Shown: in pieces, positions 7,722 through 37,867 of the stretch
Position numbering within the stretch: the first letter of the stretch is position 1
Layout: every line of letters starts with the position of its first letter
Source: an uncultured Alphaproteobacteria bacterium
GTDB taxonomy: Bacteria > Pseudomonadota > Alphaproteobacteria > UBA7887
Reading direction: 5' to 3'
Length of the DNA stretch: 52,877 bases
NCBI GenBank assembly: GCA_902562525.1
Contig: CACETT010000003.1
Coordinates: 1-52,877 of the forward strand
Program-made: the position numbers and the translations under genes
Notes under the pieces: generated by a model
The model's database searches: none
Seen by the model: only the letters and a program-made list of their open reading frames with translations
What the model was told of the DNA's origin: nothing

Positions 7722-7848
7722 CCCAAAATGCTACATAAAAGAGGGCAAAAACTAAATAGTCTTATTAGAGTCTGGGTGCAAGATCGCCATAACTCAGCCA
7801 TAATTACTCTTAAAATGGGCCTGACGATGTGTAGGCTAGGCAATTTGT

Positions 7849-10323
7849 ATGAATTTATCACGAAATTATAACGGAGGTGGGCCTCGTCGCTTCAGGGTGC
7901 TGCGTTGGTTGTTTGCTGTTAGCGCCGTAGGCGCTCTACTATTGATATTGGGGGGGATAGGCCTTTTATTCTTTACGTTGCACCATTTTAGCAGAGGATT
8001 GCCAGAATACTCTCAACTGGCTGACTACGAACCTCCCACCTTAACACGCCTCCATGCGGGCGATGGACGTCTTCTCGCTGAATATGCTCGAGAACAGCGT
8101 GTATTCGTCCCAATCGAAACAATCCCAGAATTGCTTGTTCAGGCCTTTGTGGCTGCTGAGGATAAAAATTTTTATGCTCATCAAGGAGTAGATTTTGTTG
8201 GTGTTGGGCGTGCGGTAATTCAGAATATTATAAATTTTAGCTCGGGGAGGAGACTTATCGGGGCTTCCACAATTACTCAACAGGTAGCAAAAAATTTTCT
8301 CCTTACTAACGAAGTTTCGCTCGACCGAAAAGTTCGTGAGGCCATGCTTGCTATAAGAATAGAACGCGCCTTATCGAAGGATAGAATTCTGGAATTATAT
8401 CTGAACGAGATATTTTTAGGCCAAAGGTCTTATGGGGTTGGCGCTGCTGCGCTGAACTATTTTGATAAGTCTTTGGCCGAGCTTGATTTGGCGGAAATAG
8501 CCTTTCTAGCCGGTCTCCCCAAGGCTCCAAATAGTTACCATCCTAGTCGTAATATGGCCGCTGCATTAGGTAGGCGTGATTATGTTTTGGGCCGAATGCT
8601 AGAAGATGAATACATAGAAGAGGAGGAACTAAAGCGAGCAGGTGGCGCCCCCATAGAGTTAGTGCCCAGAAATCAGGCAGAGGTAGTAAATGCTCCATTC
8701 TTTGCCGAGGAGGTGAGAAGGGAAATCAACTCAAAATACGGGACGGATGCCCTGTATACGGGAGGCTTGTCGGTTCGAACTACCTTGGATCCAGTACTTC
8801 AACGTGTCGGAGTTCGTGCCTTACGAGATGGTCTAATCAACTATGATCGCAAGTTTGGCTGGCGTGGACCTCTAGGACAGCTAGATATAAGTGCTGATTG
8901 GGCAATGAATTTGAGGAAACTTGATAAACCGCTAGGATTGGGTCCGTGGCTGCTATCGGTGGTTCTTGATGTTCAGGCACTAGAGGTAACAATTGGATTT
9001 CCAGATAGTACACGGGGTAAAATACCATTATCTAATTTGGTGTGGGCAAGGCAGGCACGGGAAGGACAGCGTTTAGGGCCAGCTGTAGAGGATGCCAGGG
9101 ATGTCTTGTCGTTGGGGGATGTGGTGTTGGTGAGTGCCTCCCAAAGCGATCCGCAAATAGATATGGAAGGTCTCAAAAATTTCGATTTATGTCAGTTGCC
9201 GGAGGTTGAAGGCGCACTGGTTGCTATAGATCCTCATACGGGAAGGGTTCTGGCAATGATAGGTGGATGGAGTTTTGAGGAAAGCCAATTTAATAGGGTA
9301 ACTCAGGCCCGACGTCAGCCCGGATCTGCATTTAAACCGTTTGTTTATATAGCTGCGATAGAAAGGGGGTACACTCCATCAAGCCTAATCCTTGATGCCC
9401 CATTTGTAGTTGATCAGGGTCCTGAATTAGGCATGTGGAAACCAGAGAATTATGGGCGGGAATTTGGTGGTCCAGCAACTATGCGGGTAGGTATAGAAAA
9501 ATCAAAAAATTTGATGACAGTCCGATTGGCAAATACAATTGGTATGAGGAGTGTGTTAGATGCTGCGGCCCGGTTTGGATTAGGGAAATTTGAGCCGCAT
9601 CTTTCGACGGCCTTGGGTTCAGGCGAAACGACCTTGCTGAGGTTGACGTCAGCTTACGCCATGTTGGTTAATGGGGGTCGGAGAATCGAGCCTGCTTTTA
9701 TTGAAAGAATTCAAAATAGGAAAGGTGTCACTATAGAAAGAAGAGACACTAGGAAATGTAGGTTGTGCGGTTTTCCCAATGCATCCCCTGATGCGGTGCC
9801 GCAGTTAAATGATATCCGTGAACGGATTACTGATTCTGCTTCCGCATTCCAATTGACATGGATGTTAAAAGGGGTTGTGGAACGGGGAACGGCGCGCAAG
9901 GTTGGAAAACTTGGACGCCCTTTGGGCGGAAAGACCGGTACTACCAACGACAGTCATGATGCTTGGTTTATTGGATTTTCCCCTGATCTAGCGGTAGGAG
10001 TGTATATCGGATTTGATCAACCTAGAAGCTTAGGCCCTAGACAAACTGGTTCTAATGTTGCGGCTCCAGTTTTTAAGCAATTTATGGAGGGAGCGATGCA
10101 AGGAAAACCTGCTGTCCCGTTTAGGATTCCGAATGGGATCCGTATGGTCCGTATCGATGCCAATACTGGAACTTTGCCTGGGCCACGTAGTAAAAGAACT
10201 ATATTGGAGGCTTTTAAGCCGGGTAATGAGCCTGTCGGCGCTCCTATAATTTATCGAAGGGACGATGGAAATTTAGAGAGGATCGAAGAAATACCACTGG
10301 GTGACGACAGCGGATTATACTAA
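7849..10323 (+). CDS. mrcA: Penicillin-binding protein 1A (transglycosylase/transpeptidase)
   Basis: N-terminal TM helix, AAEDKNFY, GASTITQQVAKN, RKVRE, QPGSAFKP (SxxK), SKN (SxN), KTGTTN; upstream of prfB. Confidence 0.95.
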   Translation: MNLSRNYNGGGPRRFRVLRWLFAVSAVGALLLILGGIGLLFFTLHHFSRGLPEYSQLADYEPPTLTRLHAGDGRLLAEYAREQRVFVPIETIPELLVQAFVAAEDKNFYAHQGVDFVGVGRAVIQNIINFSSGRRLIGASTITQQVAKNFLLTNEVSLDRKVREAMLAIRIERALSKDRILELYLNEIFLGQRSYGVGAAALNYFDKSLAELDLAEIAFLAGLPKAPNSYHPSRNMAAALGRRDYVLGRMLEDEYIEEEELKRAGGAPIELVPRNQAEVVNAPFFAEEVRREINSKYGTDALYTGGLSVRTTLDPVLQRVGVRALRDGLINYDRKFGWRGPLGQLDISADWAMNLRKLDKPLGLGPWLLSVVLDVQALEVTIGFPDSTRGKIPLSNLVWARQAREGQRLGPAVEDARDVLSLGDVVLVSASQSDPQIDMEGLKNFDLCQLPEVEGALVAIDPHTGRVLAMIGGWSFEESQFNRVTQARRQPGSAFKPFVYIAAIERGYTPSSLILDAPFVVDQGPELGMWKPENYGREFGGPATMRVGIEKSKNLMTVRLANTIGMRSVLDAAARFGLGKFEPHLSTALGSGETTLLRLTSAYAMLVNGGRRIEPAFIERIQNRKGVTIERRDTRKCRLCGFPNASPDAVPQLNDIRERITDSASAFQLTWMLKGVVERGTARKVGKLGRPLGGKTGTTNDSHDAWFIGFSPDLAVGVYIGFDQPRSLGPRQTGSNVAAPVFKQFMEGAMQGKPAVPFRIPNGIRMVRIDANTGTLPGPRSKRTILEAFKPGNEPVGAPIIYRRDDGNLERIEEIPLGDDSGLY

Positions 10324-32991: not shown

Positions 32992-34293
32992 TCAACTCTT
33001 TTGGGATGCTCTCAAGGCTTGTTGTAAGTCGTTCTTTAGATCCTCTGAATCTTCTAAGCCTATGGATAGGCGGACTAGGTCTGTGCCAATTCCTGCAGCT
33101 TGTAGCTCTGCGTCTGACATTTGTTGGTGTGTTGTGCTAGCTGGGTGTAGGACTAGCGATTTTGCGTCACCGACGTTTGCCAAGTGGGAAAATACTTTAA
33201 GCCTTTCGATAAATTTTTTCCCCGCTTCTCTGCCCCCTTTTATGCCAAAAGAAGGGACTGCCCCGCAGCCTTTGGGTAACAGGGCCTTGGCTAATTCAAA
33301 ATCTGGGTGTCCAGCAAGCTCAGGATAACTTACCCATTCAACCGCATCGTGTTGGTTCAAAAATTCAACAATTTCTCTAGTGTTAGCTACATGCTGTTTC
33401 ATCCTGACATGCGCATCTTCTACTCCCAATATTATGTAGAATGCATTAGAGGGACTCATACAAGCGCCGAAATCGCGTAGACCTTCCGTTCGAGCCCGCA
33501 TTAAAAAAGCTCCTGGACCAAACTCATCCTGATATTTTAACCCATGATATCCCTCGTAGGGCTGTGTCATATTTGGAAACTTTTCTCCACCACCCCAATC
33601 AAAGGAGCCCTTGTCTATCAGAGCTCCGCCAATTGCCACTCCATGTCCACCTAAAAATTTTGTTACTGAGTGCATAACAATATCTGCGCCAAGCTTGAGA
33701 GGTTGGCTAAGGTATGGGGTAGCAAAAGTGTTGTCGATCATTAACGGGATGCCGGCCGAGTGCGCGATTTTAGCTAGGCGTGGAATATCTAAGACTTCCA
33801 GACCAGGATTTCCCAGAGTTTCCCCAAACACCAAGCGGGTATTGGGTTGTATCGAGGCTTCAAATTGGTCAATAGCGCGGGCATCCACAAAGCTAGTTTC
33901 TATCCCAAACCGGGGAAGAGTATGTTTGAATAGGTTGTAACAACCTCCATAAATATTTTTAGAGGCAACTATGTGACTACCTGAATCCATGAGAGTGCTG
34001 ATGGCCAAATGTAAGGCAGCCATTCCGCTAGCTGTACAAATTGCGCCAACCCCTTCTTCCAACGCGGCCAACCTTTCTTCTAAAACAGAAACGGTGGGGT
34101 TGCTTATCCGCGAATAGATATGACCAGCCCTCTCAAGGTTGAAGAGAGAGGCAGCGTGGTCAACGTTTCCAAATACGTAAGAGGTGCTTTGATAAATCGG
34201 TACTGCTCGTGACCCAAAATCGCTATCTGGTTGTTGTCCAGCGTGAAGAGATAACGTGCCAAGCTTCAAGGTTTCATTTTTTGCCAAGGTCAA
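32992..34293 (-). CDS. metY: O-acetylhomoserine aminocarboxypropyltransferase/sulfhydrylase (Cys/Met metabolism PLP family)
   Basis: LHAGQ, PIYQSTSY, YSRISNPT, ASGMAA, DNTFATP, HSVTKFLGGHG (PLP Lys), LANVGDAKSL-LHPASTTH, VRLSIGLED. Confidence 0.88.
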   Translation of the reverse strand: MTLAKNETLKLGTLSLHAGQQPDSDFGSRAVPIYQSTSYVFGNVDHAASLFNLERAGHIYSRISNPTVSVLEERLAALEEGVGAICTASGMAALHLAISTLMDSGSHIVASKNIYGGCYNLFKHTLPRFGIETSFVDARAIDQFEASIQPNTRLVFGETLGNPGLEVLDIPRLAKIAHSAGIPLMIDNTFATPYLSQPLKLGADIVMHSVTKFLGGHGVAIGGALIDKGSFDWGGGEKFPNMTQPYEGYHGLKYQDEFGPGAFLMRARTEGLRDFGACMSPSNAFYIILGVEDAHVRMKQHVANTREIVEFLNQHDAVEWVSYPELAGHPDFELAKALLPKGCGAVPSFGIKGGREAGKKFIERLKVFSHLANVGDAKSLVLHPASTTHQQMSDAELQAAGIGTDLVRLSIGLEDSEDLKNDLQQALRASQKS

Positions 34294-34478
34294 GTCTTTC
34301 TAAAAAAAGATTCTGCTTTGAGTTTGAGAAGTGATTTTTTTTGAATTTCCTCATTTACTCGGTCCATTTCCTTTTGGAGGATTACGAGGTACTCTTGTAA
34401 GGAGTCAGTCGATAGAGGGTCTAACACGGGGGGGGTAAACATCTTGTCAGATTTTTCAAGCTCTTCTTCCTCTTCCAT
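34290..34478 (-). CDS. DUF1192 family protein
   Basis: LDPLSTDSLQEYLVILQKEMDRVNEEIQKK...AESFFR coiled-coil pattern; 4-bp TTGA overlap with metY. Confidence 0.75.
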   Translation of the reverse strand: MEEEEELEKSDKMFTPPVLDPLSTDSLQEYLVILQKEMDRVNEEIQKKSLLKLKAESFFRKT

Positions 34479-34549
34479 ATCTACAGTAATCCTTTCAATG
34501 AATATCTCCCATACCCAAATTCTCCAACATACGAACTCTATGTCATTCT

Positions 34550-35344
34550 TCAGACTTGTTGATATATGCCTACCATTCTTTGAAATCCACTATCGGTTTC
34601 CTCAAGAATAGAAATCACGTCAGTAATATCTGTAAACAGGTATTCCCAGAAGTACTTTTGATAGCCATCCCGGAATTGATCCAAAGTTTGCAGGCCAAAT
34701 CGGTCCAAAACTCCACCTTCTCTGGCAGATAAAAACATTTTCAAAGTAGCTCGATTGGTGTCCAGATTAGACATTAAACCAATTATTTGGCAGGCGCGCG
34801 TTATGGTGCTCAGGTGACCAGGGTTTCCTGGAGGGGCTGTTTCCGTAAAATCGGCACATTGTATAGCCTCAGCAATAGGTTCAAGCGAGAGATAGGAAAT
34901 ATCGGCAAGTTTTGTGCGGACATACATACAACTTCGATCTGCACAATGTTGCCACAGTGCAGAGTCTGTTTGGGTAAAAGGCAGGGTAATCATTTCACGA
35001 TTGGGTTTTAAAAAGCTTGGATCTTTATCCTCTATAAACAACCCTCTTAGGATCCCAACACGGCAGAATAGAGTGGCACATAAAATTTGTCGCATGTTGT
35101 GAGCGTCAGCCTGTCCAGTTTGTATGATTTGGCCACGGACGACATCGAGTGCAATGATAGCGCACTTAATGGTATAATCTAGGGAAAAGAGAAGGCTGTC
35201 GCTTTTAGACATAGTCGAAAACGCCAGTGCTGCCATTGATTTTACTTGATGCTCCAGGAGAGGATCATCTCGGAAGTGGCTATCGCAGAGGGTGCTGAGG
35301 TAATCAAAAAAAATATCAGTCTCTACAGAGGTAAATTTAAACAT
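34550..35344 (-). CDS. Catalytically degenerate paralogue of the adjacent HD-domain protein
   Basis: Aligns by eye along its length with residues ~1-270 of 35354-36694 (SDSLLFSLDYT/SDALYHDTEHT; LFCRVGILRG/LFHDIGYSRG; TDSALWQHCADRS/TDAFLTPYHVERS; ACQIIG/SADLIG; YQKYFWEYL/YPSFFYNYV), with all predicted metal ligands replaced. Confidence 0.75.
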   Translation of the reverse strand: MFKFTSVETDIFFDYLSTLCDSHFRDDPLLEHQVKSMAALAFSTMSKSDSLLFSLDYTIKCAIIALDVVRGQIIQTGQADAHNMRQILCATLFCRVGILRGLFIEDKDPSFLKPNREMITLPFTQTDSALWQHCADRSCMYVRTKLADISYLSLEPIAEAIQCADFTETAPPGNPGHLSTITRACQIIGLMSNLDTNRATLKMFLSAREGGVLDRFGLQTLDQFRDGYQKYFWEYLFTDITDVISILEETDSGFQRMVGIYQQV

Positions 35345-35353
35345 CCTATTAGC

Positions 35354-36694
35354 TCACAAATACTTGGACATTTCGTAGCCGAGTTGTGACATAAATGATA
35401 AAGTAGGGATATCGGGTTCTTCAACCTTGAGGCTAAAAAATTCCAGGACATAGCGAACGCCAAGCTTATCCGAGACTGGGAAGGCAAAAGCGCCCTTAAC
35501 ACCAATATCTTGCGCTAGCTTAGCTCTTGGAAAGTTGGGATCTATAGTCACATCCTCCACCCACTCCGCTCGACCGGAAACAGAAACTCTGCCAGGGAGC
35601 CCCTCGCCATTTTTGAAAACGGTTCTTGATGTGACCGAAACAAACGTGTCCAGGGCCGAGGAAGAGCTTTCTAGGTGCCAAACCCCAGTGGGTCTCATAC
35701 AAACCTCACCATCTATGTTTTCTGGTCTCACATATGCATGGCCGACCGGCCACTTCTGGAAAGCACAAATCCGGGTCAGGATAAATTTCAGGGAAGCCTC
35801 AAAATCCTGTTCTATTTTTAACTTTTCACTAATTACATGTAATAATTCCAACCCTTGGCTGGAGAGTATTGCCCTATGCTCTTCAAAGAAAACATGAAAA
35901 TTTAAGTTTGAGTTCCACTGTCTACCATTAGCTGTTAGGGATAAATATTCGCTGGCTTGTGCGATGTGTGGTTGAACATAGTTGTAGAAAAAGGAAGGGT
36001 ATGACTTTTTTAAGTCCATAGGGCTGTCGTAGCCAAGTTTGCTGTTAGCGCCAGTCTCCTCAAATTCATAAAATAAAGCAGGGATTTTACGGTAATATCC
36101 GGGGTCACCTAGTTGGCCTATCAAATCGGCGGAGGACACCAGATTGGTTAATTCTCTATTTTTAGTGTCGTTTATCCCATGGCTTCTGTCTTTAGGGATA
36201 GGGAATTCAGTGTTTTTGATGAAGTCACAAATCAACTGTATATCTAACTCTCCTGTCCACTCAGCCTCATTTAGGAAAATTTGCGATCGTTCAACGTGGT
36301 AAGGGGTAAGGAATGCATCAGTTGCGTTAGGGGGTATTTGGATGGATTTCCCATTAAAATTTATCACTTGCCTAGAGTCGTTGTCGCCCTTCAAGATCCC
36401 TCTGGAATAGCCAATATCGTGAAAGAGCAATGAGATACTGTAGTGTATCCAGTCGTCAATATTTACGTCGTTTTTGACGATCTTCCGTCCAACGAAGATA
36501 TCTTGGCCGCAAAGTGTTACTAATACTGTGTGTTCAGTATCATGGTATAAGGCATCACTGTTATTTAGTATTTTGATACAGTTGTGGACGGCTCGGTATA
36601 ATACGTCGTTAAACATATCTTTTTGTTCTGGAAAAATTACGCTTTTTCGCTTTTGAATTTCCTCGATAAAAATGTCGGCATAATCTACAGCCAT
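35354..36694 (-). CDS. HD-domain metallohydrolase (resembles the cyanobacterial Npun_R2479 family) fused to a C-terminal GAF domain
   Basis: SDALYHDTEHT, LFHDIGY, LTPYHVERS, ADLIGQLGDP, LFYEFEETG. Residues ~283-446 show a GAF pattern (WPVGHAY, GEGLPGRV, WVEDV--DPNFPR, GAFAFPV, VLEFF). Confidence 0.82.
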   Translation of the reverse strand: MAVDYADIFIEEIQKRKSVIFPEQKDMFNDVLYRAVHNCIKILNNSDALYHDTEHTVLVTLCGQDIFVGRKIVKNDVNIDDWIHYSISLLFHDIGYSRGILKGDNDSRQVINFNGKSIQIPPNATDAFLTPYHVERSQIFLNEAEWTGELDIQLICDFIKNTEFPIPKDRSHGINDTKNRELTNLVSSADLIGQLGDPGYYRKIPALFYEFEETGANSKLGYDSPMDLKKSYPSFFYNYVQPHIAQASEYLSLTANGRQWNSNLNFHVFFEEHRAILSSQGLELLHVISEKLKIEQDFEASLKFILTRICAFQKWPVGHAYVRPENIDGEVCMRPTGVWHLESSSSALDTFVSVTSRTVFKNGEGLPGRVSVSGRAEWVEDVTIDPNFPRAKLAQDIGVKGAFAFPVSDKLGVRYVLEFFSLKVEEPDIPTLSFMSQLGYEMSKYL

Positions 36695-37033
36695 TGCCTA
36701 ATGTCCATTCGATAGTAGTTGTCTAGCAGGAATCTAAAGCAGTACGAGCTCCCAGCAACCAATTATATCATATTATAAATAGTGCTGTTCTTCGGAGGCA
36801 ATACGATTTTGGCGTCAATTTCTTTTAAATAGATTATATTTTAGTCAAGCTACAGTTCTGTTACTGCCCAACTTGTCCTAGTAGGCTAGTATTTGCTTGC
36901 CAGGAGGCTGCACAAGAATTATCTACGGCCTTGTCTGAGAGCGCTCATCTCTTGACGTCCTGCTTTTCAGGTGAATTTTTGGGTGTTTCGGATCAGTTTT
37001 CTAGTAGGGCTTAATATGCGCAGGAGTAATTAA

Positions 37034-37867
37034 ATGGGTGCCGAGGGTGGCCTCAGGTTGAAATTTTGGGGGGTGAGAGGAAGCATTGCATGTCCAGGCC
37101 CTAAAACGGTCCGATATGGGGGAAACACATCATGCGTAGAGGTTCGATGTGGCCAAGATTTATTAATATTGGATGCCGGTACCGGATTGAGAGGGCTAGC
37201 AGAGAGTTTAAAACAAGGACAAGCGTTGAAAGCAAATTTATTTTTGACCCACACCCATTTGGATCACGTTTGCGGGTTTCCTTTTTTCCAACCCTTGTTC
37301 AAGGCAAGTACTAGTTTGAACATCTGGGGAGGGCATCTTTCCTCGGGTCGTCCAGTGCGGCAGGTTTTCGATAGCTTGATGATGGATCCTCTTTGGCCAA
37401 TACAGTTAGATGACTTAAAGGCGGGAATAACATTTCATGACTTTATTGCGGGTGATGCTTTGACGCCAATTGATGGTGTTGAGGTGCAAACGGCAGCTCT
37501 TAATCATCCTAATGGGGCAACAGGCTATCGTATTAATTATCAGGGGAAATCTGTTTGTTATGTAACTGATACGGAGCATTTTGCGGATCGTATCGATGAG
37601 AATATAGTGGGATTGGCTGACAATGCGGACATATTAATTTACGATTCCACATACACACCAGATGATTATAAGAATAGAGTCGGCTGGGGACACTCTACCT
37701 GGGAGGAGGGTGTTAAAGTTGCGAAGCAAGCTGGTGTAAAGAAATTCATCGTGTTTCATCATAATCCCGAACATAATGACGATGACATGGATCTAATAGA
37801 GCAACAGGTGTGCGATGTTATGGGGAATGCTGTGGTTGCAAGGGAGGGGATGGTATTATGCCTATAG
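37034..37867 (+). CDS. MBL-fold metallo-hydrolase (RNase Z/PhnP/phosphodiesterase-like branch)
   Basis: FWGVRGS, YGGNTSCV, LDAGTG, THTHLDH (HxHxDH), LNHPNG, TDTEH, IYDSTY, GWGHST, FHHNP. Confidence 0.9.
   Translation: MGAEGGLRLKFWGVRGSIACPGPKTVRYGGNTSCVEVRCGQDLLILDAGTGLRGLAESLKQGQALKANLFLTHTHLDHVCGFPFFQPLFKASTSLNIWGGHLSSGRPVRQVFDSLMMDPLWPIQLDDLKAGITFHDFIAGDALTPIDGVEVQTAALNHPNGATGYRINYQGKSVCYVTDTEHFADRIDENIVGLADNADILIYDSTYTPDDYKNRVGWGHSTWEEGVKVAKQAGVKKFIVFHHNPEHNDDDMDLIEQQVCDVMGNAVVAREGMVLCL

Follow-up and report, generated by a model that had tools for sequence, protein, structure and literature searches.

A degenerate Npun_R2479-type HD paralogue encoded directly downstream of a phosphodiesterase-like HD-GAF protein is most likely its non-catalytic partner

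Introduction

Degenerate EAL, GGDEF and HD-GYP domains act as non-hydrolysing sensors, and in long RSH proteins the pseudo-hydrolase domain of RelA is an HD domain made inactive by the loss of its catalytic residues, with a regulatory or structural role beside the active domain. In RelA, however, the inactive HD belongs to another HD branch than the protein described here, sits in the same polypeptide as its active partner, and that partner is a synthetase and not a paralogous HD domain. Closer in kind are PA2572 of P. aeruginosa, a degenerate HD-type domain ('YN-GYP') that has kept a regulatory role (PMC3411652), and PDEPg of P. gingivalis, a proposed HD pseudo-phosphodiesterase (PMC13700151). 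Both share with the protein studied here, P0001, an HD-superfamily domain whose catalytic residues are lost; they are, however, single proteins of the HD-GYP and PgpH-like branches, fused to REC or membrane domains, whereas P0001 is a separate polypeptide and the fixed downstream partner of its own active paralogue.

A second point of comparison is offered by the class I cyclic-nucleotide phosphodiesterases (PDEs), of which a separately encoded dead catalytic-domain subunit is, to our knowledge, not a feature. Class I PDEases are dimeric (PMC8177086).

The family to which P0001 leads is that of Npun_R2479 (PF28239), covered in NCBIfam by NF045583, the 'Npun_R2479 family HD domain-containing metalloprotein'. 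Our literature search for Npun_R2479 found one passing mention in a proteomics preprint and no experimental characterisation, and a search for 'HD-CE' found nothing relevant. The family is rare, occurring in 10 of 401 genomes of the class, and a family search of 1.84 billion proteins returned 233 representatives at E ≤ 1e-3. Here we describe a gene pair of this family in a 52,877-nt stretch of DNA from an uncultured alphaproteobacterium (contig CACETT010000003.1, assembly GCA_902562525.1), the whole of which is called the window below. The case is set apart from known HD pseudoenzymes by a dead paralogue that has a gene of its own, fixed downstream of the active one, and by its family, which is uncharacterised, PDE-like and equipped with a C-terminal GAF domain.

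Results

Organisation of the gene pair

The pair and its parts are given here in the direction of transcription.

36772..36801, minus strand: promoter-like site TTGCCT-18-TATAAT (10/12) upstream of the HD-GAF start, a consensus match only
35354..36694, minus strand: HD-GAF protein P0002, 446 aa, encoded directly upstream of P0001
35870..36694, minus strand: HD (PDE-like) catalytic domain of P0002, residues 1-275 (NF045583, E = 4.2e-79; all family invariants intact)
35354..35860, minus strand: C-terminal GAF domain of P0002, residues ~279-446, plus stop codon (Pfam, profile and Foldseek matches)
35345..35353, minus strand: 9-nt spacer gctaatagg between the HD-GAF TGA stop and the P0001 ATG, read from the sequence
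34550..35344, minus strand: P0001, 264 aa, degenerate, predicted catalytically dead HD paralogue of the Npun_R2479/PF28239 family

The 9-nt spacer implies that the HD-GAF and P0001 genes lie on one transcript, and the two are probably translationally coupled. The promoter-like site is a candidate promoter of this two-gene operon; between 34100 and 37200, eight such sites were found against 6.4 expected, which is no enrichment. Within the same interval there is no terminator-like site, and no Rfam RNA family was found in 34000-37200 at E ≤ 0.1.

A DUF1192 gene (62 aa, 34290-34478, minus strand) lies 71 nt downstream of the P0001 gene; DUF1192 is also found downstream in the contigs of the 42%-identity orthologue (L001 and L002) and is absent from other lineages. 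An MBL-fold hydrolase gene (37034-37867, plus strand; Lactamase_B_2, 2.4e-23) is divergent from the HD-GAF gene, and an orthologue of this hydrolase has a weak Anti-Pycsar_Apyc1 match in one source table. PADLOC gave no defence-system match for P0001, P0002, the DUF1192 protein or the MBL protein.

The C-terminal ~170 residues of P0002 were assigned to GAF by sub-threshold Pfam matches (GAF_2/GAF_NLP), by profile matches to GAF domains in the PDB (E ~1e-5) and by Foldseek matches to GAF structures (TM 0.7-0.79, E 3e-6). P0002 thereby joins a PDE-like domain to a GAF domain, as do the GAF-containing class I PDEs (PDE2/5/6/10/11); the GAF domain is, however, N-terminal in animal PDEs and C-terminal in P0002.

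Homology and family assignment

P0001 and P0002 are homologous in direct comparison (BLASTP E = 3e-10, 20% identity over 221 columns) and in a comparison of profiles built from ten P0001 orthologues (set A1) and 28 HD-GAF proteins (set A3), which HHalign aligned over 257 columns (99.4%, E = 4.3e-21). The NF045583 model matches P0001 with E = 5e-24 and 85 bits, its alignment covering residues 34-264, and P0002 with 265.6 bits, both under the equivalog cut-off of 400 bits; PF28239 is given for both genes and for P0001 orthologues in source tables. P0001 is best read from these matches as a member at Pfam-family level and not as an NF045583 equivalog. It shares with the Npun_R2479 family full-length homology, the PF28239 assignment of its orthologues and the helix order of the catalytic neighbour; it differs in that every His and Asp that would define a 'metalloprotein' is gone and in that it belongs to a separate, well-supported clade.

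Pfam had zero matches to P0001 at E ≤ 1 (the release used predates PF28239), P0001 lacks the H...HD...D motif of the HD superfamily (PF01966) and matches no HD model, and even among the catalytic relatives a weak match to Pfam HD was found in 10 of 33 (best E = 0.031). Sequence searches of the PDB with P0001 and P0002 returned nothing at E ≤ 1-10.

Loss of the catalytic residues

To define the catalytic positions, 165 family domains were aligned to one HMM, 58 of them full-length canonical catalytic domains. Six positions read H/H/H/D/H/D in all 58 catalytic members, and the signature D-H-H-HD-H...D has no exception among these full-length canonical domains; P0001 retains none of the six. BLASTP and profile alignments agree on the mapping from P0002 to P0001, namely H51 to F53, H55 to Y57, H92-D93 to C94-R95, H133 to C134 and D190 to Q186, and the codons concerned are the following.

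36542-36544, minus strand: P0002 H51, intact family invariant
36530-36532, minus strand: P0002 H55, intact family invariant
36419-36421, minus strand: P0002 H92, intact family invariant
36416-36418, minus strand: P0002 D93, intact family invariant
36296-36298, minus strand: P0002 H133, intact family invariant
36125-36127, minus strand: P0002 D190, intact family invariant
35186-35188, minus strand: P0001 F53, substituted catalytic position, codon checked
35174-35176, minus strand: P0001 Y57, substituted catalytic position, codon checked
35063-35065, minus strand: P0001 C94, substituted catalytic position, codon checked
35060-35062, minus strand: P0001 R95, substituted catalytic position, codon checked
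34943-34945, minus strand: P0001 C134, substituted catalytic position, codon checked
34787-34789, minus strand: P0001 Q186, substituted catalytic position, codon checked

Because these positions are 100% conserved in the 58 catalytic members, their joint loss is expected to abolish the metal site of the family. An earlier sequence-only reading of the locus had proposed that every predicted metal ligand is substituted. Its five listed changes are reproduced by both alignments, while the label 'metal ligand' may not hold for all of them: in class I PDEs the His that opens the YHNxxH motif, to which H51 is aligned, is the general acid and not a metal ligand, and by the same analogy H55, H92, D93 and D190 are presumably the metal ligands. 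For H133 we know of no class I PDE counterpart that can be named. The same reading had described a loss at catalytic positions within an intact scaffold, and this holds and can be extended. The catalytic-clade invariants Y50, T162, Q194, D197 and E210 are replaced in P0001 as well, all of the listed scaffold motifs (SD, LF..G, RG, TD, RS, IIG and the aromatic YFW helix) were located in it, and its open reading frame, which had been read as 264 codons free of stops and frameshifts, starts with ATG and has zero internal stops.

Of the roughly 25 invariants of the catalytic clade, P0001 keeps only 9, so that retention of none of the six is by itself not very improbable (~0.07 by our own arithmetic). 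The evidential weight lies instead in the pattern being maintained throughout the whole partner clade, which has invariants of its own (S50, S128, W131, R183, S206, R225 and W233). The residues that replace the ligands vary within this clade, position 94 being C/A/S, position 95 R/H/N/Q and position 134 C/Y/R/K/H; this variation makes it less likely that a new site for catalysis or metal binding has arisen.

Predicted fold and resemblance to class I PDEs

The AF2 model of P0001 (pLDDT 93, pTM 0.91, from a 47-sequence alignment) is all-alpha with one small hairpin, and its elements match residues 1-272 of the P0002 model (pLDDT 86) one to one and in the same helix order. Structure prediction of each chain, which had been suggested as a check, thus gives P0001 an all-alpha fold of the HD/PDE-like kind, its helices arranged in the same order as in the HD domain of P0002. 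The best PDB matches of the P0001 model in Foldseek were PDE5, PDE10A, PDE1B, PDE9A, TbrPDEB2 and TcrPDEC1 (probability ~1, TM ~0.5, with weak E-values of 0.04-0.2), and the HD proteins 2pjq and 3i7a followed after the class I PDEs. These matches support a relation of P0001 to the HD superfamily at the level of the fold.

The catalytic relatives point in the same direction. A profile of catalytic single-domain members (A4) searched against the PDB matched PDE10A, PDE8A and PDE5 (E 0.0025-0.03), and for a profile of the N-terminal half of the catalytic members all matches listed were class I PDEs (best E 0.0014), with 'sdalYHdveHt...llHDi' aligned to 'nvaYHNwrHa...alsHDl' of PDE5. Designer PPR proteins, which appeared as top matches of the A4 profile, were rejected as repeat artefacts over a 30-residue stretch. 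The catalytic relatives thus share with class I PDEs a YH[DN]xxH[TA]...HD motif that aligns with that of PDE5 and PDE10A (best E 0.0014-0.01), and 19 of 33 match the Pfam model PDEase_I (PF00233; best 1.6e-5), all under its gathering cut-off of 24.8 bits. Differences are the second His of 'HDxxH', which is absent from the family (HDIGY), and P0001 itself, which lacks any catalytic residue and has none of the residues of the PF00233 signature YHNxxH plus HD(x)xH. By these profile and model comparisons the catalytic family appears closest to the class I cyclic-nucleotide PDEs, in the sense of resemblance and not of membership.

Fixed pairing across lineages

Each of the 14 HD-GAF loci that we inspected (alpha-, beta- and unclassified proteobacteria) has a degenerate paralogue directly downstream, the junction between the two genes varying from an overlap of 8 nt to a gap of 10 nt (-8 to +10); the upstream gene always carries the full catalytic signature, and the downstream gene lacks most or all of it. 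In the window's own family the dead gene was found in five genomes, each time directly downstream of the HD-GAF gene. On metagenomic and NCBI contigs of ever more distant members, the same arrangement recurs at the 42%-identity orthologue P0012, at the distant partner-clade members P0019, P0016 and P0017, and at the HD-GAF proteins P0089, P0176 (source name: Betaproteobacteria MAG), P0247 and P0239. On two truncated contigs, the fragment that lies upstream can be recognised as a GAF C-terminus.

The flanking genes differ by lineage (CMD/DUF2805; Asd/DLH; GltX/aldehyde dehydrogenase; GCV_T/AprE; luciferase-like/ABM), and the MBL hydrolase, DUF1192 and MetY are therefore regarded as family-level synteny and not as parts of the module. 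The MBL hydrolase stands beside the pair only in the window's own family, along with a quinone oxidoreductase and TrcR; a three-gene module including it was rejected, as it is absent in five other lineages. On a betaproteobacterial MAG contig (L028), the gene two places downstream of the pair (7779-8347) codes for a cNMP_binding/POPDC-like protein, a single case. Taken as a whole, the genomic context strongly supports a functional tie between P0001 and the HD-GAF enzyme. Fusions of a catalytic with a degenerate domain, which would serve as a Rosetta stone, were absent among the 150 best representatives. Catalytic family members also occur as partnerless singletons, so that a dead subunit is no inherent requirement of the catalytic domain.

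Genes are ordered alike in a second pair type, in which the catalytic protein consists of the HD domain alone (~280 aa) and the gene for a ~285-aa partner begins 3-45 nt further on (L009 in G025, L019 in GCA_900172325.1, L020 in G373 and L021 in G209). This partner is partly degenerate, with H51 and H55 kept, F[A/S] in place of HD and H in place of D190. At one further locus (L022; G177:C3:2899000-2903500, about 2087-2904) the second-type partner is split into overlapping frames of 191 and 267 aa, which may be a frameshifted pseudogene (a local loss) or a sequencing error.

Selection and evolutionary history

The ten orthologues of P0001 (98-42% identity, about 264-277 aa) all have intact frames and begin with MF[KR][FL]. 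Their alignment has 86 invariant columns, among them those of SDSL, TDSALW, ITRACQ and YFW. In the wider partner lineages, down to about 15-25% identity, frames of ~264-290 codons are intact except for the second-type partner of G177. An additional gene call, P0013 (276 aa, annotated with a DnaA domain), is 84% identical to 21% of P0001 and is probably a chimeric call or an assembly artefact.

Pairwise dN/dS estimates, obtained at dS 0.2-1.0, were 0.07-0.09 for the P0001 gene between the window and a metagenomic relative (L003), 0.08-0.11 between the window and a same-genus genome (L005), and 0.16-0.23 for its orthologues in two genomes of a sister genus (L006 and L007). For the window and L003, the corresponding values were 0.03-0.05 for HD-GAF, 0.05-0.07 for MetY and 0.08-0.11 for an alpha/beta hydrolase; the P0001 gene is thus similar to neighbouring housekeeping genes. 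Compared over one and the same genome pair, the dead protein is 87% identical and its catalytic neighbour 93%. The P0001 gene is under purifying selection and is not decaying. The sequence-only reading had argued for selection for a non-catalytic role and against decay, and had named dN/dS among orthologues as a check: all three pairs show values far from neutral evolution (0.07-0.23), and the intact orthologues and the clade-specific invariants agree with them.

In a maximum-likelihood tree of 107 domains with SH-aLRT support, the fully dead partners form one clade (100) and the catalytic domains another (99). Neither partner type falls within the catalytic clade, whereas the enzymes of the two pair types group together there (94). 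The position of the dead lineage outside the catalytic clade points to one old duplication, and the sequences fit such a duplication followed by stepwise loss of the site. When the enzyme and partner distance matrices of 13 pairs are compared, they correlate (r = 0.95, permutation p = 0.0002), which gives no sign of partner swapping, with the partner evolving faster than the enzyme (mean distance 0.71 vs 0.54); such co-diversification is also expected from the mere co-inheritance of adjacent genes.

Discussion

P0001 combines homology to an enzyme, loss of the catalytic residues, purifying selection and conserved linkage with an active paralogue. Judged from its sequence and predicted structure, it is a pseudoenzyme, an old Npun_R2479-type HD paralogue that appears to have lost its metal and acid-base apparatus and kept the fold. 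In our view it most likely serves a PDE-like enzyme under GAF control, either as an obligate partner that takes no part in catalysis or as a regulatory subunit. The HD-GAF protein would, by analogy with class I PDEs, have phosphodiesterase chemistry, with a cyclic or other nucleotide as its putative substrate. The best reading, to which we assign a moderate probability, is an asymmetric active/dead heteromer: P0001 would pair with the catalytic HD domain of P0002 in an arrangement resembling the dimeric catalytic domains of class I PDEs and would act on the single active site by stabilising it or tuning it allosterically, and the GAF domain of P0002 would sense a small ligand. This heteromer is favoured because the gene coupling implies matched stoichiometry, because the catalytic domains of class I PDEs have been described as dimeric (PMC8177086) and because the ligand-replacing residues are variable in the dead clade.

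The strongest competitor, unlikely in our estimation and still deserving consideration, holds that P0001 acts without a stable complex as a stand-alone ligand receptor or decoy, its dead HD domain binding the nucleotide or phospho-ligand of HD-GAF as a non-hydrolysing sensor or buffer. The charged residues D106, R137, E209 and R183 are invariant in the catalytic and dead clades alike, and the clade-specific conservation sits in motif blocks lining the old cleft, a distribution equally compatible with an interface and with a ligand pocket that has been kept. Moreover, degenerate domains of the family are joined to an AAA_35 NTPase in three copies and to a caspase in two, where a non-catalytic role is the only one available to them, and PA2572 (YN-GYP; PMC3411652) and the HD pseudo-PDE of P. 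gingivalis (PMC13700151) provide precedents. On the other hand, positions 94, 95 and 134 are variable in the clade, a metal-free phosphate site is not evident, and no ligand can be named; the strict coupled pairing with a stoichiometry of about 1:1 also suits a subunit better than a free receptor.

We regard as very improbable that P0001 is still an enzyme with a rewired site, using Cys-based or metal-independent chemistry built on conserved cysteines and Q186. It is true that C20, C61, C89, C185 and Q186 are invariant in the ten closest orthologues and that two of the old ligand positions of P0001 are now taken by C94 and C134, but the wider clade loses the cysteines (C185 is V/I/T in P0016-P0021, C61 is retained in 74%, C94 and C134 in 42%), and P0001 contains no known catalytic motif and has no Pfam or PADLOC match. 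A new Cys-based metal site in P0001 was rejected on the same pattern, since its cysteines are not conserved across the wider partner clade.

That P0001 is a decaying duplicate, a pseudogene in progress that has so far escaped stop codons, is refuted by the selection and conservation data and carries next to no probability: its faster evolution relative to the catalytic neighbour (87% vs 93% identity; 0.71 vs 0.54) and the split G177 partner are set against a dN/dS of 0.07-0.23, intact ~264-290-codon frames in every other lineage down to about 15-25% identity, 86 invariant columns in ten orthologues and a confident AF2 fold.

Considering P0001 as a non-catalytic subunit, a wider proposal can be formulated, which is tentative and to us rather doubtful in its entirety: HD-GAF and the dead HD protein would together form an undescribed bacterial second-messenger PDE near the eukaryotic class I GAF-PDEs, an obligate active/dead heterodimer in which the dead subunit would provide a non-hydrolysing nucleotide pocket or an allosteric interface, and cyanobacterial NTPase/caspase conflict proteins would have taken up degenerate copies of the domain to sense nucleotides.

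Among bacterial proteins, the catalytic members of Npun_R2479/PF28239 seem to stand nearest to the class I cyclic-nucleotide PDEs, and the GAF-bearing subfamily always comes with a strongly selected dead paralogue (14/14 loci). PDE likeness, a fixed and selected dead partner and one old duplication together make the Npun_R2479 family a tractable target. What is proposed is a two-subunit, ligand-regulated PDE, common in marine alpha- and betaproteobacteria; if this is true, a separately encoded HD pseudoenzyme subunit would join the few known HD pseudoenzymes, and the system could help to explain how GAF-PDE signalling arose. Should the partner only stabilise an ordinary phosphohydrolase, the result would amount to no more than a useful annotation.

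Degenerate copies of the domain were also encountered in larger proteins. Two multidomain proteins from the representative search have no Npun_R2479 domains other than degenerate ones. P0015 (1373 aa) has an AAA_35 NTPase domain followed by three tandem degenerate Npun_R2479 copies, with HYQD, HYQD and HHQN in place of HHHD, and P0018 (929 aa) has a caspase domain (Peptidase_C14) followed by two; both architectures recall the NTPase/caspase proteins with which filamentous bacteria conduct conflict or signalling. Two eukaryote-like, low-complexity proteins, P0088 (528 aa) and P0094 (708 aa), begin with a segment that resembles RIIa (sub-threshold match to the Pfam model, E = 0.0016) and also have a degenerate Npun_R2479 domain that reads H-L-[SG]-[HY]-R-D and lies on a very long branch of the tree.
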